Origin: a virus
Lineage: Duplodnaviria > Heunggongvirae > Uroviricota > Caudoviricetes
Strand: one strand, 5' to 3'
Length of the DNA stretch: 18,148 bases
IMG/VR virus record: IMGVR_UViG_2703718826_000002
In this document: piece by piece, positions 1 to 14,889 of the stretch
How positions within the stretch are numbered: the first letter of the stretch is position 1
Layout: the number at the start of each line of letters is the position of its first letter
Translations under genes and position numbers: made by a program
The notes under the pieces: generated by a model
Seen by the model: only the letters and a program-made list of their open reading frames with translations
The model's database searches: none
Told to the model about the DNA's origin: nothing

Positions 1-136
1 ACTTGTTCGCACCTTCCCTATGCATTGCTCATCTTACACACAGCGCAATGTTGTTAGATTACCCCAGCATGGATCATGGGTGAAACAGTAGGTCAGAGCT
101 TCAGGCTCTGTGTTGTCAATACAGTGAGGCATAATT

Positions 137-346
137 ATGGCTTTCATTCAACCAACCATCGACGACGTTAGACATTGCTCTAACGCTTTATCTGTAGACC
201 CTGCCGAAACCGACGCAGCCCGCGCCATTGCTGAACACTACTCAAAGATATCCAATCAGGAGTACCGCATCACCCAAGACGACCTGGATGACCTCACTGA
301 CACAATCGAATATCTCATGGCAACTAACCAGTTAGACTCACAATAA
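137..346 (+). CDS. hypothetical small protein (69 aa)
   Basis: Intact ORF with GAGG Shine-Dalgarno-like motif about 8 nt upstream of the ATG; acidic, no recognisable catalytic motif. Confidence 0.35.
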   Translation: MAFIQPTIDDVRHCSNALSVDPAETDAARAIAEHYSKISNQEYRITQDDLDDLTDTIEYLMATNQLDSQ

Positions 347-389
347 ATGCACTAATAAATCTATTATTTTCGTTTGATCCCTCTATAAT
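346..389 (+). promoter_or_regulatory. candidate C1-type operator (346-362, AATGCACTAATAAATCT, 14/17 to consensus) overlapping a promoter with TATAAT -10 (384-389)
   Basis: Operator-like 17-mer directly after the stop of the 69-aa ORF; consensus -10 hexamer about 70 nt upstream of the 283-aa gene start. Confidence 0.35.
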
Positions 390-456
390 ATAGGTCAGTA
401 ATGACCGGTTTTCTCAGCCGGGCGTTATTGACCATGTCAATTCTGGAGGAGGATCA

Positions 457-1308
457 ATGATAAATTATGTCTACGGCGAACAACTGTACCAGGAGTTCGT
501 CAGCTTCAGGGATCTCTTTCTAAAAAAAGCTGTTGCACGCGCCCAACACGTTGATACAGCCAGCGACGGTCGTCCTGTACGCCCGGTTGTCGTTCTACCG
601 TTCAAAGAAACTGACAGCATTCAGGCTGAAATTGATAAATGGACTTTAATGGCGCGGGAACTGGAACAGTACCCAGACCTCAATATCCCAAAGACTATTT
701 TATATCCAGTGCCTAACATCCTTCGCGGTGTGCGTAAGGTTACAACTTATCAGACAGAAGCTGTGAACAGCGTCAACATGACCGCTGGCCGCATTATTCA
801 TCTGATTGATAAGGACATTCGCATCCAAAAAAGCGCGGGGATCAATGAGCACAGTGCGAAATACATAGAGAACCTGGAAGCAACAAAAGAGCTAATGAAG
901 CAGTACCCGGAGGATGAAAAATTCCGTATGCGCGTACACGGCTTTAGCGAAACAATGCTGCGCGTCCACTACATTTCCAGTAGCCCTAACTACAATGATG
1001 GTAAATCAGTTAGTTACCATGTGCCACTGTGTGGCGTGTTTATCTGCGATGAAACTCTCCGTGATGGAATTATCATCAACGGTGAATTCGAAAAAGCAAA
1101 ATTTAGCCTTTATGACTCCATAGAACCGATCATCTGCGACCGCTGGCCGCAAGCAAAAATATATCGCCTGGCAGATATTGAAAATGTAAAAAAACAAATT
1201 GCCATCACTCGCGAAGAGAAAAAGGTTAAGTCAGCCGCATCAGTTACGCGCAGCCGTAAAACCAAGAAGGGGCAGCCAGTAAACGACAACCCCGAAAGCG
1301 CGCAATAA
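457..1308 (+). CDS. hypothetical phage/plasmid protein (283 aa) with basic C-terminal tail; possibly replication-associated
   Basis: Long ORF with strong RBS GGAGGAGG 6 nt upstream of ATG. Lys/Arg-rich C-terminus suggests nucleic-acid binding. Family assignment (RepL-like or YagK/YfjJ-like) could not be verified. Confidence 0.6.
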   Translation: MINYVYGEQLYQEFVSFRDLFLKKAVARAQHVDTASDGRPVRPVVVLPFKETDSIQAEIDKWTLMARELEQYPDLNIPKTILYPVPNILRGVRKVTTYQTEAVNSVNMTAGRIIHLIDKDIRIQKSAGINEHSAKYIENLEATKELMKQYPEDEKFRMRVHGFSETMLRVHYISSSPNYNDGKSVSYHVPLCGVFICDETLRDGIIINGEFEKAKFSLYDSIEPIICDRWPQAKIYRLADIENVKKQIAITREEKKVKSAASVTRSRKTKKGQPVNDNPESAQ

Positions 1309-1311
1309 ATT

Positions 1312-1333
1312 ATGCCCGGCATCAACCGGGCAT
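1312..1333. terminator. hairpin (8-bp stem ATGCCCGG/CCGGGCAT, 6-nt loop) between convergent genes; candidate bidirectional terminator
   Basis: Perfect inverted repeat 4 nt after the stop of the 283-aa gene; moderately U-rich flanks on both strands. Confidence 0.4.
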
Positions 1334-1558
1334 TCTTCCATTATTCAGCCGCCACCGGTTTTAACAAGCCAGCATCGAGCAGTTTACGCGTCAACCACTG
1401 CTGGCCTTTACCCGTTAATTGAGGCGTCAACCGTATCTGGTAGCCATCTTCATCATCCAGCACCACTTCTTTCACCGTGAAATACCCGCGTTGATGTACT
1501 GCTGGAACGGTACATTTTTACGGCCTCCGGACGCTATCAGAATGCCGTTCTCCCGTAA

Positions 1559-2455
1559 CTAGGCAAACAGCGCATTTTGTTTAAGTCCAACGACCTTTGC
1601 AAAATTCCCAATCAGGATCCCTTTAGCTACTGATACCCGGTCGGCAAAATCGACTTTAGAAGCGGCAGCCACCAGCTGCTGATTTAGCTGGTGGGCTTTC
1701 TGTTCCAGAAGTTGCTTTTGTTCAGCTAACTCGGCAGCCAGGCGCAGAGCTTCTGGAAGCGTCTGGGGGATTGCGACCGGTTGCTGTTCTTTTTGTCGGA
1801 AGTAGCTGTCTTCCAGTTTTTCAAAGAATGCCCATGCCTGATCGGTTTCGAGCATTTTAGCGTGACGGGCAGCTCCTCGTTCTGTCCAGAGGATGAGAGA
1901 GCGCGCTTTGGGGGAGACTGGATTTTGTGAGTAGTTTAAAGCTACCCGCAAATTTTTCAGCTCATCGCCAATAACCTTGAAAAAGTGCTTCGCTTCAACA
2001 AAGCGTACTTTGTTCTCATGATGATTCTGGCGAATGCGAATCGCTTCTGTACCATACCCCTTAGCAAGAGTTTCGGTTGTTACGACACGCACTCCCTGCC
2101 ACTCCAGAACGGGAATTTCATCCGACTGATTTTGAACAACCACCAGCTCTGATTCCTGAACTGAAGGTGCATGAACTTTTTCTGATTTAACGTTAGTAGC
2201 TTTCATTCTGTGTGCCTCCTTGCGTGCTTCGGCTGCGACGGTTGCGTAATTCAGATGCCCCTGTTCGAGCAGGTATTCGCGGATATCAGACAGCAGGATG
2301 CGGTGAACTGCGTTCTTGTCCTTTCTCCGGTAAAGTTGTTTGGTGATCATGAAGTAGTTGGCAATAACGCCCGGTATATCCCTAGTACTGATACAGGCAG
2401 TGTGCTGTTCAATTGCCTCGATCATCTCTTCACGGGTAACTAATGACGTTCTCAT
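1559..2455 (-). CDS. phage antirepressor-family protein (Ant-like; Bro-N/ORF6N-like central region and KilA-C-like C-terminus)
   Basis: 298-aa ORF. Central motif VVTTETLAKGYG...VRFVEAKHFFKV and C-terminal VSVAKGILIGNFAKVVGL resemble antirepressor domains. Start overlaps upstream ORF stop (ATGA). Confidence 0.6.
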   Translation of the reverse strand: MRTSLVTREEMIEAIEQHTACISTRDIPGVIANYFMITKQLYRRKDKNAVHRILLSDIREYLLEQGHLNYATVAAEARKEAHRMKATNVKSEKVHAPSVQESELVVVQNQSDEIPVLEWQGVRVVTTETLAKGYGTEAIRIRQNHHENKVRFVEAKHFFKVIGDELKNLRVALNYSQNPVSPKARSLILWTERGAARHAKMLETDQAWAFFEKLEDSYFRQKEQQPVAIPQTLPEALRLAAELAEQKQLLEQKAHQLNQQLVAAASKVDFADRVSVAKGILIGNFAKVVGLKQNALFA

Positions 2456-2673
2456 AGTCCCTCCTGAGCAGAAGCGTTAACAGGGAGGCACCAGTAACTG
2501 AGAGAATTGCGCAAATCGGTTGAAAAGCGGGCAGAGAAAATGCAGGGAGCGTCAGGAAGCTGAGAATGGGCCTCATCTTCTGTCGGTGCAATAACGAAGT
2601 GATAGTGACGTTTTTGGCAGGAGTAAAAGCGCCAGATAAATTCAGGATGAATTGGGGTAGGGACAGTAGCCAT
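2452..2673 (-). CDS. small protein (73 aa) translationally coupled to the antirepressor; icd-like position
   Basis: Strong RBS AAAGGAGG 8 nt upstream of ATG; ATGA overlap with the Ant-like gene, as in P1 immI icd-ant coupling. Confidence 0.5.
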   Translation of the reverse strand: MATVPTPIHPEFIWRFYSCQKRHYHFVIAPTEDEAHSQLPDAPCIFSARFSTDLRNSLSYWCLPVNASAQEGL

Positions 2674-2858
2674 AATGGCAGCCTCCTTTGACTAAGTTAA
2701 GGAGCTACCGCGTGAGGTCTCAATCTCAATGGCGGTAGCACTGACTGGGTTGAGACTACCGGCGTCAAAGGGAACCGGCCTGCCTTTCGGCAGCCCAGCC
2801 AGCACTACCATTGATTTCGGAGCTAAACGCTACGTATGGCTGTGCGATGGCATGACAC

Positions 2859-2881
2859 AAAAAAAGACGCTTTCGGCGTCT
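2859..2881 (-). terminator. intrinsic terminator (minus strand): stem GACGC/GCGTC, loop CGAAA, followed by U7
   Basis: GC stem-loop immediately followed by seven U in minus-strand sense; sits between the operator-controlled promoter at about 2990-3015 and the icd-like gene. Confidence 0.55.
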
Positions 2882-2980
2882 GTGTCGCCTTTGACATTAT
2901 CCGGGGTCTCAATCCCGGCACCCGTTTTAATGAGGTGCCTGATAAGCATAAACCGAAAATGCCTCAAGGCGCAAGAGGTC
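2882..2980 (-). ncRNA. candidate short structured transcript or leader (c4-like antisense-RNA position)
   Basis: About 100-115 nt between the predicted promoter (-10 TACATT at 2987-2992) and the terminator; contains stem-loops (CCGGG...CCCGG). No convincing protein-coding frame. Confidence 0.2.
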
Positions 2981-2986
2981 AGGTTC

Positions 2987-3029
2987 AATGTAACATCGGC
3001 AGTCAAAAAACACAATTTATTAGAGCAAG
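2987..3029 (-). promoter_or_regulatory. C1-type operator (3013-3029, CTTGCTCTAATAAATTG on minus strand, 15/17) overlapping the -35 (TTGTGT) of a promoter with -10 TACATT
   Basis: 17-mer begins 2 nt after the terminase stop codon; 17-nt spacer between hexamers. Confidence 0.5.
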
Positions 3030-3032
3030 TGT

Positions 3033-4160
3033 TTATTCATTAAGCCATGCCAGAGCTTCATCAACCTGCGCTTCGTCTTCGACGCTAAGCACTTCGTCCT
3101 GGGGAACATAATCCGCCAGCATAGCGAAACAATATGTATCCCAATGGTCTGGTGAGTGCAGGTTGAGTTTTTTCTTCATATCCTCCTTACTCATCACCTT
3201 CCATTGACCTGCGGAGTTAATCCCTACAGGGATTTTCGACGCTTCCTCAATAGTTTCATTACCCTTATCCAGTCTCATACGACCAGATTTTACGGCCTCT
3301 GCGGCTTGAACGTTGGCATAAGCACGTTTATCAAAGTACAGGCTCTTATCTTCACGGCTATGCATCTTTTTACCCCAGCGTATACGCTGTACGGTAATAC
3401 CATAATACTCGTACATCAGATCCGCCGTTGCTTTACCCAGGCCATCGCCGTCTATCGCTATGGTGATATTGGGGAATCGCTCAGGATTACATTCTGCGAA
3501 AATTTTGGCGGCAAGCTGCGTTTCTGTAACGTCTGTGTATTCCAGCATTCGATAGTTGATTACACGGCGTTTATTTCGCTGGCCGGACACCATCATGATA
3601 TTGATAAAGGACTTATCCCGTCCTGTACCACCAGCAACGTCCACACATGCAAGCCAGCCCCATCCTTTGGCAATCTTGACTTTCCGCCGCGTCGCACGTT
3701 CAACCTCATCACGTCCAAGAAGGAAGCCGTCCTGTAATTTAGGGAATAGGCCGCGTACCTTAATCATGTACATAGGGTTATCACGCCCGCCGTACTCCGC
3801 CAGCTTCATTTTGATAAATTCTGACGTTACCAGCGGTGATTCCTCACTGTTAAGCGTGATCGCCGTATAAACGCCATCTGGGTTACCAGGACGCTTGGCC
3901 AGTTTATGGTGAGTATCGTAGAAATAGCCGCTTGGGCGTGTAGGCTGTGACAGTAATAAGATGCGGTTATCCTGTCCGGTAAGAGCACCGGTGATGATAC
4001 CGAAAGCTCTATCACTGACACCGGAGGCTTCATCGATAATATACAGAAGATGATCTGCGTGTTCACCGGCGAGAACTTCTTCACTTCCCAGACGAAAGCC
4101 CTTCGGTACTACAGTCCATACACCTTTACCAGTAGACTGGCCCCCTGAATCTCCAGACAA
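3033..4160 (-). CDS. terminase large subunit, C-terminal portion (Walker B plus nuclease domain); gene interrupted upstream
   Basis: 375-aa ORF starting at a TTG; contains Walker B-like [11 protein letters not shown] and acidic nuclease-domain motifs. In-frame stop 3 codons upstream of the putative start. Confidence 0.75.
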
Positions 4161-4165
4161 CCAGT

Positions 4166-4183
4166 ATCACTTATTTAAGTGAT
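4166..4183. repeat. 18-bp perfect palindrome ATCACTTATTTAAGTGAT at the break between the two terminase ORFs
   Basis: Revcomp of ATCACTTA is TAAGTGAT; provides stop codons in all three minus-strand frames. Confidence 0.8.
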
Positions 4184-4605
4184 AACAGGTGTCTGGAAAT
4201 ATAGGGGCAAATCCAACCAGTAACCTCATAGAAAGCGGTTTCTGTCAGAACAAAATAATCAGCAAGCCATGGAAAACGGCTGGTGGCAGTAGCCCAGTTT
4301 ATCTTGATGTACTTGAATATACCGGTCATTACCTGCTGAATTTTGTTCGCAACGATAATGGCGCGGGCACCGGGATACATGATTATGAACAACATGATCA
4401 TGATAGAAGTCATGTCTGATTTCCCGGTACCGTGACCAGACGAAACAGATGTCTTGCTACCCTGTTCCTGCACAGACTCAATAATCAGATCCTGCTGCCA
4501 GGTAGGTGTTTTGCCGAACAAAACATCAGCGGCCGCAATCCAGTCATAACGATATAGCGCCACCAGCTCGCGCCAACGTGGATCCGTTACGCAACTTCTG
4601 GCCAT
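4171..4605 (-). CDS. terminase large subunit, N-terminal portion (Walker A SGHGTGKS)
   Basis: 144-aa ORF with P-loop; ends in TAA inside the palindrome. Start overlaps the stop of the upstream acidic protein (TAATG). Confidence 0.7.
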
Positions 4606-4976
4606 TAATCATCATCCCCGTATAGCTTGCGGGTAACTTCTTCGTCTTCCTCCTCGTCTTCGTCCAGGTCTTGTTCCAGCCATGGGTCGTTTGATACACC
4701 TTCAGTATCAACATCTCCATAACCGCCTGTATCAACGATATCGGCGATTTCTTCCCTACGCTGCTCAATCCACAATGCGGCATCGGCGCGGCGGTTGGCG
4801 GCCCGTTCTCGCGCAACTTTGTCCAGATCTTCAAGAGAAGGGCCACCGACGGCTGTTTGCCTTTCCTCATCATCGGTATTGGTCTTAGGAGCACGCAGAT
4901 CGGCTTTGATTTGCTCCAGCATCAGGGGCGGCACTTTCCCGCCATGCGCCTCGATGAATTCAGCTGCTTCCAGCAC
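4605..4976 (-). CDS. acidic packaging-associated protein, probably C-terminal part of a terminase small subunit
   Basis: 123-aa ORF with poly-acidic C-terminus (DEDEEEDEE); translationally coupled to the large terminase. Frame is open upstream to 5009, overlapping the 104-aa ORF. Confidence 0.45.
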
Positions 4977-5236
4977 TGACCAGTTATTTTCACGCTTTCG
5001 TTCGTACTGTCATCAATCAAAACAGACGAATACTTAGACACAGCGATAGCTTTTAAGCGCAGATAAACATCGCGCTTATCGACATCCAGATGCGGGTATT
5101 CCTTTTCAAGAATTGCTGCGAGTTCTTTCGCTGATAGAAGAGATTTAGTGCGGATCATGTAATTCGCAATCTCGTACGATGTTATTCGTGAGTGATTTAT
5201 TTCCATGAAGTGGCGTCCCTGCCAGTTAAGTAACAT
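4922..5236 (-). CDS. putative N-terminal (DNA-binding) part of the small terminase-like protein; C-terminal tail likely out of frame
   Basis: 104-aa ORF; alternative start at 5206 (MEINH...). Last 18 residues ([18 protein letters not shown]) are the alternate-frame reading of the 123-aa ORF N-terminus. Confidence 0.4.
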
Positions 5237-5281
5237 CCTGTCACCTACTGATTAGCCCATGTCAACTAATCAACGTGGAAT

Positions 5282-5323
5282 ATAATACCATCGATTAAAG
5301 AAATAGCAATACATTAGAGCAAT
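5282..5323 (-). promoter_or_regulatory. C1-type operator (5307-5323, ATTGCTCTAATGTATTG on minus strand, 14/17) overlapping promoter (-35 TTGCTA, -10 TATTAT)
   Basis: Begins immediately after the stop of the 347-aa gene and precedes the packaging genes; 16-nt spacer between hexamers. Confidence 0.45.
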
Positions 5324-5324
5324 T

Positions 5325-6368
5325 TTATCTAACGCTCGACGAGTAACTTGTGATAGCGCCGACTCCAAGCGCGTAATCAAAGAACAATCGTTGATGCATC
5401 GCCAGCCTACCGTGCGTCTTCTCCCAATTATCGCGGTCACGCTCAATATCACGCTGGCATGACTGGCACAGAGGAATTGCGTAAATGTCATGCGCGCATA
5501 ATCGACTATGACGAACGATATAAGGCGTAATGTGAGCGCCAGCTCCCGCAGCTCCACAGCCACAGCATGGACGGGAAGCCACAAAGTCCATGTACTCGGG
5601 CAATTTTAGCGATTGAAGTTTTGGTATTTTGAAATGCGCCATACCTGGGTCGGAGTCAACATCCACAGGGCATACTTTTGCACGCATCGGCGCGGCGCGT
5701 TCTTCCATCATCTGAACATATGCTGTAGCGCGATCGTCATACGGGCGAATATCCGCCTCTTTCAGAGGTCCGCTATCCTGCGGAGCAGCCTTCATCTTAT
5801 TTATTGATATGCGGCAGACTTCTTCCGGCATCAGGTGCATCATGTTACGCATGAAAGCCCACCAGCACAGCTCCTGAATACTTAAATCATGGCTATCTGA
5901 AAGGCCCATTTCCTGACGGGCGACATCCAGTATCCAGTTAACGCGATTATTGTGCAGCGTTTCTTTCAGCTCATTAAAACCACGCATCCGGTAATGGTTA
6001 TCGTGATGCCAGCACAACAACACCGCGCTATTGTCTCGTTCAGCGTGGACAATATGGTTGTCACACCAGCTACGATCTGCGGCCTGGCATTGCCCCTCTT
6101 TCCTGCGCAACCACGCCACCAGCGCGTCAATTCCACCAATACGGCGAAACAGTTCATCGCTGTTAAAAAACGGCTGCAACGCCTCATTTGTTGCTATAGT
6201 TTGCTCGGAAGCAACGAGGCCGTCGTCCATGTGCTCGATTAACTCACGCGGCACCGGCTCCATAATAAATTTACGGCCAGCCTCCACCAGCTTTCTGACC
6301 TCCTGATCCACTTTGAACGTGGCGAGGCCAAGTTCTTTCTGTACAAAGGGAGTAATTACGGCTTTCAC
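5325..6368 (-). CDS. hypothetical phage protein (347 aa) with Cys/His-rich C-terminal region (putative metal-binding)
   Basis: GTG start with AAGGTG SD; C-terminal [12 protein letters not shown]...C..C.SCQ cluster. Possibly DUF968-like or the pdcB-position gene of P1-like elements; not verified. Confidence 0.6.
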
Positions 6369-6395
6369 ATCACACCTTTAATCACTGATTGGGCT

Positions 6396-6575
6396 TTATA
6401 TGCTGCCCGGCATTCTCTGTTTAAGCACAACCATTTCCTGACGGCATAACACAGCAATAGCGGTCCTGGCACCAATTTGCTTACCAGCCAGGTATTGCTT
6501 TACCTCGCGGCGACTCACGCCATCAAGAAGCATCTTTAACGCTTCACGGGACAATTTGTTGTATTTACGTGCCAT
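6396..6575 (-). CDS. small basic protein (59 aa) downstream of doc (pdcA-like position)
   Basis: Start chosen at internal ATG (6575) with GGAG SD 9 nt upstream, 4 nt after the doc stop; the ORF-track start at 6596 would overlap doc. Confidence 0.4.
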   Translation of the reverse strand: MARKYNKLSREALKMLLDGVSRREVKQYLAGKQIGARTAIAVLCRQEMVVLKQRMPGSI

Positions 6576-6579
6576 TAAT

Positions 6580-6960
6580 CTACTCCGCAGAACCATACAA
6601 TCTACGTAACGTGTCGGCGACAGAAGATACAGATATCTCGCCAGTCGCAGCGCCTACAGTAAGGTCTGCCAGTTCAGGTGAATCAAATACCTGCACCCCG
6701 TTACGGCGTAGAAATAGCAGCGCACTGTTTAGCGCGGTACGCTTATTGGCATCATTGAATATATGCCCTCTCGCCGTAGCCACCAGGTAGGTGGCGGAGA
6801 CTTCGAAAAGGTCGGTGATCTCTTCGTAGGCAACTCTGGCCTGAACTCTCCCGATAATGGCCTCTGCCCTACCCGGATCAGACATTCCCGGCAGGCCGCC
6901 GTAGCGGTTTATATTCGCATCATGAAGCGCAATAAGTTCTTCCGGTGATATATGCCTCAT
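6580..6960 (-). CDS. doc: Doc toxin (death on curing; Fic-fold kinase that phosphorylates EF-Tu)
   Basis: 126-aa protein matching recalled P1 Doc almost residue for residue ([17 protein letters not shown]...[11 protein letters not shown] Fic-like motif); coupled to phd. Confidence 0.92.
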
Positions 6961-7181
6961 TATCGGTTAACCAGTTCCTTGTTGGTGGAGTCCAGGGTGT
7001 CAAACAGGGATGCAAATTCAGCATCCAGCGCCGCTTTTTTGTAGGCTTCAAAAGTAGCCTTGCTGACAATTACTGCTGGCTCACGGCCTCTGCGGGTGAT
7101 TTCAACCTCTTCCCCGGCCTCAACATTGTTGAGCACTTCAGAAAGGTTGCCCCGCGCGGTACGGAAGTTAATGGATTGCAT
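6960..7181 (-). CDS. phd: Phd antitoxin (prevent host death)
   Basis: 73-aa protein [49 protein letters not shown]... matching recalled P1 Phd; 1-nt overlap with doc. Confidence 0.92.
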
Positions 7182-7185
7182 AAAT

Positions 7186-7232
7186 ACCTCGTGTACTCGT
7201 TATGTGTACACAATTATAAACTTCACAGACAT
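7186..7232 (-). promoter_or_regulatory. phd-doc promoter/operator: -10 TATAAT (7213-7218, minus strand) with palindromes TGTGTACACA (7203-7212) and GTGTAC (7191-7196)
   Basis: Palindromic GTGTAC-containing sites between the -10 and the phd RBS (GAGG), consistent with Phd/Doc autoregulation. Confidence 0.5.
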
Positions 7233-7296
7233 AAAGCACCAGCACTTTGCGGCTTAACAAACCTCTAGGCAGGTCATTCGTAGCCTAATGTCCGAA

Positions 7297-7325
7297 CTGC
7301 TAAAGCATCCAAGTTGCTGTAGAAT
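7297..7325 (+). promoter_or_regulatory. candidate hsdM promoter with extended -10 (TGT-TAGAAT, 7317-7325)
   Basis: TGnTAGAAT about 30 nt upstream of the hsdM ATG; weak -35. Confidence 0.3.
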
Positions 7326-7357
7326 CACCGCCAATTACATAAGCCTGAAATAAGTGG

Positions 7358-8916
7358 ATGAAAATGACAAGTATTCAACAACGTGCAGAGCTTCATCGTC
7401 AAATCTGGCAAATTGCTAACGATGTCAGAGGTTCGGTCGATGGATGGGATTTTAAGCAATACGTTCTGGGCGCGCTTTTCTACCGTTTTATCAGCGAAAA
7501 TTTTTCCAGCTATATTGAAGCCGGTGATGACAGCATCTGTTATGCGAAACTGGATGACAGCGTAATTACTGATGACATTAAAGACGATGCCATCAAAACC
7601 AAAGGCTACTTCATCTACCCAAGTCAGCTTTTCTGCAACGTAGCTGCGAAAGCAAATACCAATGACAGACTGAACGCAGATTTAAACAGCATCTTCGTTG
7701 CTATCGAAAGTTCTGCTTACGGCTACCCTTCAGAAGCAGACATCAAAGGTTTGTTTGCTGATTTCGATACCACCAGTAACCGCCTGGGTAACACCGTTAA
7801 AGATAAAAATGCCCGCCTGGCTGCGGTTCTGAAAGGGGTTGAAGGGTTAAAACTTGGTGACTTCAACGAACATCAGATTGACCTGTTCGGTGATGCCTAT
7901 GAGTTCCTGATTTCTAACTATGCGGCAAATGCCGGTAAGTCAGGCGGTGAGTTCTTTACACCGCAGCACGTCTCCAAGCTGATTGCACAACTGGCTATGC
8001 ACGGGCAGACCAACGTTAACAAAATCTACGACCCGGCAGCGGGTTCCGGCTCACTGTTGTTGCAGGCTAAAAAGCAGTTTGATAACCATATCATCGAAGA
8101 AGGCTTTTTTGGTCAGGAAATCAACCATACAACCTATAACCTGGCACGTATGAACATGTTTTTGCACAACATCAACTACGACAAGTTTGATATCAAGCTG
8201 GGTAATACACTGACTGAGCCACACTTCAGAGATGAAAAACCGTTTGATGCCATCGTTTCTAACCCGCCGTATTCGGTGAAATGGATTGGCAGCGATGACC
8301 CGACGCTGATTAACGATGAACGTTTTGCCCCGGCTGGCGTTCTGGCCCCCAAATCCAAAGCTGACTTCGCCTTTGTACTACATGCGCTGAACTATCTTTC
8401 TGCCAAAGGTCGTGCTGCGATTGTTTGCTTCCCGGGTATTTTTTACCGTGGCGGCGCGGAGCAGAAAATCCGTCAGTATCTGGTTGATAATAACTATGTC
8501 GAAACCGTGATTTCACTGGCACCGAATCTGTTCTTTGGCACCACTATTGCCGTCAATATTCTGGTGCTGTCTAAACATAAAACGGATACCAAAGTTCAGT
8601 TTATTGATGCCAGCGAATTGTTCAAAAAAGAGACTAACAACAATATCCTGACCGATGCCCATATCGAACAGATTATGCAGGTATTTGCCGGCAAGGAAGA
8701 TGTTGCCCATCTGGCGAAATCTGTTGCGTTTGAGACTGTTGTCGCGAATGACTATAACCTGTCGGTGAGCAGTTATGTTGAAGCGAAAGATACTCGCGAA
8801 ATTATCGATATCGGTGAGCTGAATGCTGAGCTGAAAACCACGGTCAGCAAAATCGACCAGTTGCGCAAAGATATTGATGCGATTGTGGCTGAAATTGAAG
8901 GCTGCGAGGTGCAGAA

Positions 8917-8920
<4 letters not shown>
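7358..8920 (+). CDS. hsdM: Type I restriction-modification system, methyltransferase subunit HsdM (Type IC, EcoR124-family)
   Basis: 520 aa; AdoMet motif [10 protein letters not shown] and N6-adenine motif NPPY (AIVSNPPYS); N-terminus matches recalled EcoR124I HsdM. Stop overlaps hsdS start (ATGA). Confidence 0.95.
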
Positions 8921-10152
<1,232 letters not shown>

Positions 10153-10159
10153 TTGAGCA

Positions 10160-10273
10160 TTTTTACAGACCGGACCACCTTAACATCCGGTCAGTATATA
10201 GACTATTTTCTACACGCCGGAAGTCGCCCTTAACTCCCTTCCGGCCCTTGCCAGACGGCACAAAGGATGCGCT
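10160..10273 (+). promoter_or_regulatory. hsdS-hsdR intergenic region with two inverted repeats (GACCGGA...TCCGGTC; GCCGGAAG...CTTCCGGC); candidate hsdR promoter/regulatory region
   Basis: 121-bp gap, consistent with Type IC organisation in which hsdR has its own promoter; no strong sigma70 hexamers identified. Confidence 0.3.
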
Positions 10274-13200
10274 ATGACTCATCAAACACACACCATTGCT
10301 GAATCCAATAACTTTATCGTCCTTGATAAGTACATCAAAGCTGAGCAAACAGGCGACAGCTACCAGAGCGAATCGGACCTGGAACGTGAACTGATTCAGG
10401 ACCTGCGGAATCAGGGCTATGAATTTATATCCGTAAAATCACAGTCGGCGATGCTAGCCAATGTTCGGGAACAGCTTCAGAACCTCAATGGTGTGGTGTT
10501 TAATGACAGCGAGTGGCGGCGTTTCACGGAGCAGTATCTGGATAACCCGAGCGATGGCATTCTGGATAAGACCCGTAAAATCCATATCGACTATATTTGC
10601 GACTTTATTTTTGATGACGAGCGTCTTGAGAACATCTATTTGATAGATAAAAAGAATCTCATGCGCAATAAGGTGCAGATTATCCAGCAGTTTGAACAGA
10701 CGGGTTCTCATGCTAACCGTTATGACGTCACGATCCTGGTTAATGGTTTACCGCTGGTGCAAATCGAACTAAAAAAACGCGGGGTGGCGATTCGTGAGGC
10801 TTTCAACCAGATACATCGTTACAGTAAAGAGAGTTTTAACAGCGAAAATTCCCTGTTTAAGTATCTGCAGCTGTTCGTCATTTCCAACGGCACTGATACC
10901 CGTTATTTTGCCAACACCACAAAGCGCGATAAAAACAGTTTTGACTTCACCATGAACTGGGCTAAATCAGACAATACACTGATTAAAGACCTCAAAGACT
11001 TTACCGCTACCTTTTTCCAGAAACATACTCTGCTTAATGTTCTGGTGAACTACAGCGTTTTTGACAGCAGTCAGACACTACTGGTAATGCGACCGTACCA
11101 GATTGCCGCCACCGAGCGCATTCTGTGGAAAATTAAGAGTTCCTTTACAGCGAAGAACTGGTCAAAACCGGAAAGCGGTGGGTATATCTGGCACACTACC
11201 GGTTCTGGTAAAACCCTCACCAGCTTTAAAGCCGCGCGTCTGGCAACAGAGCTGGACTTTATTGATAAAGTCTTCTTTGTGGTCGACAGGAAAGACCTCG
11301 ATTACCAGACCATGAAGGAATATCAGCGTTTTTCGCCAGACAGCGTCAACGGCTCGGAAAATACCGCAGGTCTTAAACGAAATCTGGATAAGGACGATAA
11401 CAAAATTATCGTCACTACTATTCAGAAACTCAATAACCTGATGAAAGCAGAAAGCGATCTGCCTGTATATAATCAGCAAGTGGTGTTTATATTTGATGAA
11501 TGCCACCGCAGCCAGTTTGGAGAAGCGCAGAAAAACCTGAAGAAGAAATTCAAACGCTATTATCAGTTTGGTTTTACCGGCACCCCTATTTTCCCGGAAA
11601 ACGCCTTAGGCTCAGAAACAACCGCCAGCGTATTTGGTCGTGAATTGCATTCGTATGTAATTACCGATGCGATTCGTGACGAAAAAGTGCTCAAATTCAA
11701 GGTGGACTACAACGATGTGCGGCCACAGTTTAAGTCTTTAGAGACAGAAACTGACGAGAAAAAACTGAGTGCGGCTGAAAATCAGCAGGCGTTTCTTCAT
11801 CCCATGCGTATTCAGGAAATCACGCAATATATTCTGAATAATTTCCGCCAGAAAACCCACCGTACCTTCCCTGGCTCAAAAGGTTTTAATGCTATGTTGG
11901 CAGTGAGCAGCGTGGATGCCGCGAAAGCCTATTATGCGACGTTTAAACGGTTACAAGAAGAAGCCGCTAATAAATCGGCTACCTATAAACCGCTGCGTAT
12001 TGCGACAATCTTCTCCTTTGCCGCCAATGAAGAACAAAATGCCATTGGTGAAATTTCCGATGAAACTTTTGATACCAGCGCAATGGACAGCAGTGCTAAA
12101 GAGTTTCTGGACGCTGCAATTCGTGAATATAACAGCCATTTTAAAACTAACTTTAGCACCGACAGTAACGGTTTTCAGAACTACTATCGTGATTTAGCCC
12201 AGCGGGTTAAAAATCAGGATATCGATCTGCTAATTGTCGTGGGGATGTTTTTAACCGGCTTCGATGCTCCAACATTAAACACGCTATTCGTCGATAAAAA
12301 CTTGCGTTTTCACGGCCTGATGCAGGCATTCTCCCGCACCAACCGCATTTATGACGCGACTAAAACCTTCGGTAATATTGTCACGTTCCGGGATCTGGAA
12401 CGCTCAACCATTGATGCCATAACGCTGTTTGGTGACAAAAATACCAAAAATGTGGTTTTAGAAAAGAGTTATGCAGAGTATATGGAAGGCTTTACTGATG
12501 CTGCCACTGGTGAAGCTAAACGCGGCTTCATGACAGTAGTTTCAGAACTGGAACAACGGTTCCCTGACCCTACCAGTATTGAAAGTGAAAAAGAGAAGAA
12601 AGACTTCGTTAAACTGTTTGGCGAATACCTGCGTGCCGAGAACATCCTGCAAAACTATGATGAATTTGCCACGCTAAAAGCCCTGCAACAAATCGATCTT
12701 AGCGATCCTGTTGCGGTAGAAAAATTCAAAGCAGAACATTATGTGGATAATGAAAAGTTCGCTGAATTGCAAACAATTCGTCTCCCTGCTGATCGCAAGA
12801 TTCAGGATTATCGTTCTGCCTATAACGATATTCGCGACTGGCAGCGCCGTGAGAAAGAAGCTGAGAAAAAAGAGAAATCAACCACTGACTGGGATGACGT
12901 AGTTTTTGAGGTCGATTTGCTGAAGTCTCAGGAAATAAACCTGGATTATATCCTTGGACTGATTTTCGAACACAATAGACAAAATAAAGGCAAGGGCGAA
13001 ATGATCGAAGAGGTCAAACGCTTAATTCGTTCAAGCCTGGGGAACCGGGCGAAAGAGGGCCTGGTGGTCGATTTTATTCAGCAAACGAACCTGGATGATT
13101 TACCAGACAAAGCCAGTATCATTGAGGCATTCTTTACGTTTGCTCAACGCGAACAGCAACGTGAAGCAGAAGCATTGATAAAAGAAGAAAATCTCAATGA

Positions 13201-14233: not shown

Positions 14234-14460
14234 TCAGCGAACGTAAATAGTGCCGCCGTTCTCTTTTTCCCATGCATCGCTACGTGCATAGCAAACATCG
14301 AGAAGTCTTCTTGCCGCAGTTTCCTCTACCCCAGCTTCGGCTTCGCGGAGAATACTGATGATCTGTTCGTCGGAAAAACGCTTCTTCATGGGGATGTCCT
14401 CATGTGGCTTATGAAGACATTACTAACATCGGGGTGTACTAATCAACGGGGAGCAGGTCA
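14234..14460 (-). mobile_element. IS3-family (IS407-like) left-end remnant: terminal repeat-like TGACCTGCTCCCC plus truncated orfA (51 codons)
   Basis: Minus strand from 14460 begins TGACCTGC...; ORF 14234-14389 starts MKKRFSDEQIISILREAEAG (typical IS3 OrfA N-terminus) with GAGGA SD, diverges, and stops after a conserved GG. Confidence 0.4.
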
Positions 14461-14889
14461 AACCATCGCGGTCATTTCATTGAGTTTTGTTTCCAGCTCA
14501 ATGCTTATACGTTCGGCATTATCAGCACGCTGGTTGGCGTCATGCGTCGCATCGTCGATCGCGTCCTGTTGCTGGCGTTTCAAATGTTCAATTTGCAGCT
14601 GAAGCTCTTCAATTTCTTTACCCTTCAGACCGAGATCCAACTGCATATTTTCAGCTGCATCTACCAGGGAGTTATGGCTATCAGCTTCTGCGTTATAAAC
14701 ATCAATAAGCTGTGCGTGAAGCATCTCCGCTGACTGAACCGCATTATCAAAAAAACGTGCTGTGAGGTCATCACAACTAACGCGGCGTTGCGCGGCCCGG
14801 ATGTTCTGGATAATGGCCGGGATACCGGCATTCAGGACATCAGGGATAGATACATTTTCGATTGATTGGTTTTGTGCTGAAGTGCTCAT
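14458..14889 (-). CDS. hypothetical coiled-coil protein (143 aa)
   Basis: Intact ORF with heptad-rich, Gln/Glu-rich C-terminal half; abuts the 72-aa ORF. Confidence 0.45.
   Translation of the reverse strand: MSTSAQNQSIENVSIPDVLNAGIPAIIQNIRAAQRRVSCDDLTARFFDNAVQSAEMLHAQLIDVYNAEADSHNSLVDAAENMQLDLGLKGKEIEELQLQIEHLKRQQQDAIDDATHDANQRADNAERISIELETKLNEMTAMV

Follow-up and report, generated by a model that had tools for sequence, protein, structure and literature searches.

An 83-bp IS2 remnant in the terminase gene pacB of a putatively packaging-dead P1-like plasmid prophage

The stretch of DNA analysed here, termed the window throughout, spans 18,148 bp and very probably stems from a P1-like (IncY) plasmid prophage in which pacB was inactivated by an IS2 element that was later reduced by an internal deletion, the replicon no longer being able to package DNA. 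Comparison with related phages and plasmids characterizes the locus as a pacB pseudogene with a non-autonomous IS2 remnant. The break in pacB is an ordinary mobile-element scar, a known kind of event, and does not represent a new type of terminase.

The locus contains, head to tail on the minus strand, an upstream ORF of 144 amino acids (4171-4605, ATG start) and a downstream ORF of 375 amino acids (3033-4160, TTG start). The translations place a Walker A-like motif (SSGHGTGKS) in the former and a Walker B-like motif (HLLYIIDE) in the latter, as an earlier sequence-only reading of this DNA had described. Megablast searches against phage records identified the region as pacB, the gene for the large terminase of P1-type phages, with identities of 98.6-99.2% to RCS47, SJ46, JL22 and phiW39 and of approximately 82% to P1 and P7. 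That reading had proposed an alignment with intact P1-type terminase genes, and the alignment exposed an insertion: the matches to all six phages fell into two pieces, with the window being about 88 bases longer. A single pacB ORF of about 494 amino acids is absent from the window as it stands and appears only after in silico removal of the 88 bp at positions 4133-4220. The resulting ORF of 1485 bp encodes 494 amino acids, 488 of them identical to PacB of RCS47, which is likewise encoded in one ORF (a CDS of 1485 bp, 494 aa). This restoration bears out the earlier view that both halves derive from one ancestral large terminase gene. The rejoined protein carries the Walker A-like and B-like ATPase motifs, and its residues 33-474 gave an uninterrupted match, through the insertion point, to the PHROGs profile phrog_2 ('terminase large subunit'; E 4e-38). 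The separate ORFs of 144 and 375 amino acids matched no Pfam family.

The foreign segment in pacB comprises an 83-bp IS2 remnant and one 5-bp copy of a target duplication, 88 bp in total; the separation of about 10 nt between the two ORFs stated previously is merely the gap between mechanically defined ORF ends. The locus is composed as follows:

3033-4132, minus strand: 3' part of pacB, native codons ~129-494 plus the stop codon, with the Walker B-like motif and the C-terminal half including the assumed nuclease
4128-4132, no strand: left copy of the target-site duplication ACCAG, flanking the element
4133-4215, plus strand: IS2 remnant ('mini-IS2') of 83 bp, no transposase gene, 100% identical to both ends of the 1331-bp IS2 in NZ_CP010179.1
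4133-4174, within the remnant: IS2 nt 1-42
4175-4184, within the remnant: the one remaining 10-bp repeat TTAAGTGATA
4185-4215, within the remnant: IS2 nt 1301-1331
4216-4220, no strand: right copy of the target-site duplication ACCAG, flanking the element
4221-4605, minus strand: 5' part of pacB, native codons 1 to ~128, with the Walker A-like motif; identity of 99-100% to pacB in both RCS47 and the H15 plasmid

The native reading of the 5' part runs on to residue 130 through the duplicated ACCAG. Positions 1095-1189 of the query, the stretch absent from the P1-type phages, matched the ends of IS2 in unrelated phage records, one of them labelled 'insertion sequence:IS2'. Both terminal inverted repeats of IS2, IRL and IRR, are present: positions 4133-4184 and 4175-4215 are 100% identical to the ends of the 1331-bp element, which is annotated as carrying an IS3-family/IS2 transposase. 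The 5-bp target-site duplication of IS2 is found as ACCAG on both sides, and RCS47 with its intact pacB has only one copy of this motif. The genes orfA and orfB with the programmed frameshift of an autonomous IS2 are missing together with 1248 bp of the interior, and the remnant is a non-autonomous derivative and not a functional IS2.

An allele with the complete element is known from plasmid A of E. coli H15 (NZ_CP010179.1, IncY). The whole query matched this plasmid and NZ_CP061751.1 with 100% identity in two pieces over 2821 bp, and the plasmid records annotate an 'IS3 family transposase' between the two matching pieces. In NZ_CP010179.1, a 1331-bp IS2 (5' start TAGACTGGCCCCCTGAATCTCCAGACAACCAGTATCACTTATTTAAGTGATAGTC, 3' end GGGTTAAGTGATAACAGGTGTCTGGAAATATAGGGGCAAATCCA) is located at the same pacB nucleotide and in the same orientation, with the ACCAG duplication and with flanks 100% identical to those in the window. 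The IS2/pacB junction was read base by base in NZ_CP010179.1 only; NZ_CP061751.1 apparently has the insertion at the same site, as its match pattern indicates. The two alleles thus agree in site, orientation, duplication and end sequences (100%) and differ in that the window keeps only 83 bp, namely 52 bases from the start and 41 from the end of IS2 with an overlap of 10. Positions 1-4184 of the window equal positions 1-4184 of the NZ_CP010179.1 locus (100%) and positions 4175-9419 equal 5423-10667, the overlap being exactly the 10-bp direct repeat located at IS2 nt 43-52 and 1291-1300. Relative to the full-IS2 allele, the window has a 1248-bp deletion between these repeats with one repeat copy kept, and reads TATCACTTATTTAAGTGATAACAGGTG at the junction. 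The missing IS2 nt 53-1300 (equivalently 43-1290) comprise the entire orfA/orfB transposase region. This internal deletion is confined to the window, whereas the IS2 insertion itself and a deletion in pacA-lpa are common to the window and the H15 plasmid.

The sequence-only reading had also considered an engineered disruption. Linker or transposon-scar mutagenesis could leave such an insert, which in its shortness, its richness in stop codons and its palindromic character resembles designed stop cassettes, but it consists entirely of sequence native to the IS2 ends, its 5-bp duplication is of the natural IS2 type, and a natural progenitor allele occurs in field isolates; the probability of a laboratory origin is practically negligible. 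Another P1-like plasmid, CP057799.1 (locus L180 3713-5043), carries an independent full-length IS2 in pacB, in the same orientation and about 110 bp nearer to the 5' end of the gene, with the duplication ATTAC and with pacA and lpa intact. In the H15 plasmid, a 158-aa IS2-truncated fragment of pacB is annotated. Its length equals the profile length of phrog_20197 (158, unknown function), a PHROGs family which matched only residues 1-134 of the rejoined PacB and which may have been built from truncated pacB fragments.

The comparison of the alleles shows two steps in the origin of the remnant. A 1331-bp IS2 entered pacB after codon 130 and duplicated ACCAG. In a second step, the loss of 1248 bp between the TTAAGTGATA direct repeats removed the transposase region and left the 83-bp remnant with both IS2 termini. 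With respect to the second step, we infer slippage or template switching as the most likely mechanism, rather than a strand switch associated with the transposase or with IEE: in a RecA-independent replication slippage or strand switching, the short direct repeats may have been brought together by the flanking inverted repeats. The idea that the locus bears the footprint of an excised insertion was accordingly right as to the insertion and wrong as to the excision, as IS2 lost its interior and both termini and the 5-bp duplication remain. In its structure, the event matches the 'nearly precise excision' that Foster et al. reportedly described for Tn10 in 1981, with a deletion ending in short repeats just inside the terminal inverted repeats and with the target duplication kept. 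With the Tn10 events and with the loss of copy-out-paste-in insertion sequences it shares the short-repeat deletion inside terminal inverted repeats and the small, hairpin-prone, still-polar remnant with its target duplication; it differs from the Tn10 events in affecting a single IS2 instead of the composite Tn10 and in the 10-bp repeat. Ghosal, Sommer and Saedler are said to have reported IS2-derived mini-insertions such as IS2-6 in the late 1970s, which were reportedly likewise very short IS2 derivatives with termini kept that arose from illegitimate recombination. A model for the loss of copy-out-paste-in insertion sequences through microhomology or strand switching, with or without the IEE protein, is available (bioRxiv 10.1101/2023.06.07.543989).

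The remnant includes the palindrome to which the interruption of the gene had been attributed:

4165-4184, no strand: interrupted palindrome TATCACTTA-TT-TAAGTGATA, arms of 9 bp flanking two unpaired T's in the centre, native to the left end of IS2

Its earlier description as a perfect 18-bp palindrome, ATCACTTATTTAAGTGAT, overlooked the two unpaired bases. Around it lies an imperfect inverted repeat with arms of 32 nt (4142-4173 and 4176-4207) that are 78% complementary, and the folding energy predicted for the 93-nt segment as single-stranded DNA was -18.5 kcal/mol (z = -5.2 versus shuffled controls). Stop codons in all three minus-strand frames are located within 4167-4177 (TGA at 4167-4169, TAA at 4171-4173 and TAA at 4175-4177), so the earlier statement that frameshifting could not rescue the protein holds. 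The palindrome supplies these stops because it is AT-rich and symmetric. In the fetched public loci, it was located directly inside IRL in 165 of 165 IS2 left ends (L010-L174), a set found with a left-end pattern that itself includes the palindrome. A one-sided junction pattern applied to viral and genome contigs retrieved ordinary IS2 copies only, its reverse complement being the native left end of IS2. As these comparisons show, the palindrome is a normal part of IS2, neither a chance feature nor the lesion itself. A lambda-operator-like site and a phage end or telomere palindrome were both rejected as candidates, since IS2 ends account for every base. Full-length copies were polymorphic in the 2-nt loop of the left-end hairpin (AA in 98, TT in 67), which looks like loop inversion of the hairpin.

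The IS2 insertion follows codon 130 of pacB and separates Walker A from Walker B, cutting through a single ATPase fold. The insert of 88 bp is not a multiple of three and has stops in every frame. IS2 contributes the final 14 codons of the 144-aa ORF and also the opening 9 codons of the 375-aa ORF, its TTG among them, and the N-terminal product consists of the native residues to 130 and a 14-residue IS2-coded tail. By frame shift and stops, PacB would be reduced to this stub of 130 residues with its tail and to a C-terminal part without a translation start of its own. The alternative that the two ORFs yield separate products of 144 and 375 amino acids, the second by reinitiation at the TTG, which cooperate as a naturally split terminase, takes up the adjacent, equally oriented ORFs with one ATPase motif each. 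However, the annotated P1-type records, including RCS47 with its one ORF, know pacB as a single gene: the two-ORF organisation expected of such a terminase is absent from RCS47, JL22, phiW39, P1 and P7, all of which annotate one pacB beside pacA. The TTG lies in IS2 DNA, the preceding sequence, ...AAATAAGTGATACTGG, has no Shine-Dalgarno-like motif, and the cut inside the ATPase fold as well as the deletion of pacA, pac-type hexamer clusters and lpa, which leaves no packaging pathway, also speak against cooperating halves. Independent expression of a working second half is very unlikely, and a naturally split terminase is hardly credible.

The reading as an IS2 insertion with a later internal deletion has to be weighed against an error of assembly. 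The 144-aa product was found on one public contig only, LONL01000117.1 of the draft assembly GCA_001575835.1, and the window is that entire contig. In PLSDB, the complete E. coli genomes, IMG/VR and the JGI metagenomes, no second record of the 83-bp pacB allele was found. IS2 is present in multiple copies in most E. coli (median of 4 places per genome), and a draft assembler might have collapsed the repeat interior of a full 1331-bp IS2 that really resides in pacB. We regard this as unlikely. Only 10 bp are common to the two joined points, too little for an assembler to bridge and far below the usual k-mer or overlap length, so a graph assembler would need reads spanning the junction; a collapsed repeat normally breaks the contig and does not produce a clean deletion between microhomologies; and the identical junction occurs at two other loci in complete genomes. 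For these reasons the internal deletion, although taken from a single draft assembly, is probably real.

The two other loci belong to the E. coli strains MB20 (locus L003 1501-1583) and NH-21 (locus L004 1501-1583), each with an 83-bp IRL-IRR remnant and the same junction as in the window; the sequence variants differ among the three. The MB20 remnant, with GTGGT duplicated on either side, sits in a frameshifted autotransporter pseudogene, to whose disruption it contributes. In a spread sample of 25 records matching the MB20 site, no full-length IS2 was found at this position. A nearby IS2 in LR-25 was rejected as the progenitor of the MB20 remnant, being located at a different position with the duplication CTACA, and a candidate remnant of 133 bp turned out to be two tandem IS2 copies and was rejected as well. 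A survey of 5,426 complete E. coli genomes yielded just three end-to-end IRL-IRR remnants, all with different variants, and two of these loci were inspected in detail. The recurrence suggests a deletion hot spot at the 10-bp repeats, which the flanking inverted repeats would keep close together.

Short elements of this kind are reminiscent of MITEs, and the 83-bp element might have entered pacB ready-made, mobilised in trans by an IS2 transposase. Like MITEs, it is shorter than 100 bp, has IS-type terminal inverted repeats and a target duplication and lacks coding capacity. The retention of both termini and of the 5-bp duplication would suit such an arrival, as would the MB20 copy with its own duplication at a site where the sampled records have no full-length IS2. 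In contrast to MITEs, the element shows no sign of amplification or mobilisation: the window holds one copy, and the full-length progenitor is found at the same site. The 99.9% identical plasmid has its full IS2 at the very same nucleotide and equally oriented, with the same ACCAG duplication and with end variants that agree at 100%, and the independent insertion of a mini-copy at that position is far less parsimonious than origin in place. The rarity of IRL-IRR remnants in the complete genomes and the differences among their variants also argue against a dispersing element, and its arrival as a MITE is highly improbable. The element in the window would rather have arisen in place from a full IS2.

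Remnants of IS2 of 82-84 bp occur in three forms, IRL-IRR, IRL-IRL' and IRR'-IRR, all joined at the same hairpin. The IRL-hairpin-IRL' form, a perfect palindrome of 84 bp, was observed at at least three loci, one of which is common to about 47 complete E. coli genomes; a two-sided remnant pattern detected two IRL-IRL' palindromic remnants and no others in the viral and metagenome contigs, neither of them in pacB. The IRL-IRL' remnants have the following positions:

Locus L005, 1501-1584
Locus L007, 1501-1583
Locus L175, 6631-6714
Locus L176, 4603-4686

The IRR'-hairpin-IRR form, a perfect palindrome of 82 bp (L006 1494-1575), adjoins a truncated gfcC. The palindromic remnants have no target duplications, and at least one adjoins a deletion of flanking genes. 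A possible origin is the loss of DNA between two oppositely oriented IS2 copies by way of the self-complementary hairpin. A more far-reaching proposal would be that IS2, with its 10-bp repeat and hairpin, has a built-in self-destruct site which repeatedly yields 82-84-bp remnants and that these, perhaps mobilised in trans or reverting by precise excision, act as reversible gene switches; we consider it doubtful.

The surroundings of pacB point to a decayed replicon. The window is 99.9% identical to the H15 plasmid and has a P1-like backbone with the genes coi, c1, ant, icd, pacB, pdcB (DUF968), doc/phd and the type I hsdMSR. The c1 immunity, phd/doc and the type I restriction-modification system are kept. 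Compared with RCS47, the window has lost 1097 bp next to pacB, a deletion that joins codons 1-78 of lpa to the C-terminal 133 codons of pacA and is also present in NZ_CP010179.1. Its junction is located at 5004-5006 with the microhomology GTA, and two gene remnants adjoin it:

4605-5006, minus strand: 3' remnant of pacA, the C-terminal 133 codons without a start codon; window 4216-5006 equals 4129-4919 of the RCS47 locus
5003-5236, minus strand: 5' remnant of lpa, codons 1-78 of 150, with an out-of-frame tail (ORF 4922-5236); its product matches PF25716 BPP1_LPA

PacA and the pac site are required to start P1 packaging, the pac site of P1 has a 4+3 architecture of hexamers, and Lpa is the activator of the late promoters of P1. 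All 11 TGATCA/G-type hexamers of the RCS47 pacA fall within the deleted part, including two clusters which we take to be the pac site, and none was found in the window between 4605 and 5330. This deletion is a separate, independent event that cost pacA its 5' two-thirds and lpa its 3' half and eliminated the pac-type hexamer clusters. Because lpa and pacA/pac are lost, a complete lytic cycle would not be expected whatever the state of pacB.

Further lesions affect ant and pmgS. The gene ant (1341-2455, minus strand) is a pseudogene in comparison with Ant of RCS47, its reading frame of 371 residues being interrupted by a nonsense codon at residue ~299 and then by a frameshift near the C-terminus. 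In pmgS, truncated according to megablast, approximately 730 bp are replaced by 124 bp at 14329-14452 that were unmatched to RCS47; the H15 plasmid lacks window positions 14329-14846 entirely. The two target-recognition halves of hsdS (8917-10152, plus strand) share 99.2% identity over 489 bp and are joined by a 12-residue repeat (type IC-like). In the H15 plasmid, hsdS is of half size (~206 aa), as if the two halves had recombined.

With pacB broken and the 5' part of pacA, the hexamer clusters and the 3' half of lpa deleted, the gene content supports the earlier suspicion of a packaging-defective element and predicts a cryptic, packaging-dead phage-plasmid. Decay of P1-like plasmids driven by insertion sequences, with IS2 insertions included, has been documented (PMC6906374). 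The plasmids pSvP1 and pTZ20_1P resemble the window in their P1/P7 backbone, in insertion sequences (IS2 among them), in morphogenesis genes lost by deletion and in the acquisition of type I restriction-modification genes (PMC6906374), while the pacB::mini-IS2 allele, the pacA-lpa deletion and the ant pseudogene are the window's own lesions.

The remnant adds one more natural case of an insertion sequence that would have decayed by deletion between its own internal short repeats, and raises no new question. The appropriate annotation for the locus is a pacB pseudogene interrupted by an IS2 remnant, and neither a split terminase nor a pair of hypothetical proteins. The replicon would be classed as a defective P1-like plasmid unable to package DNA, which bears on the spread of phage-plasmid genes by infection.
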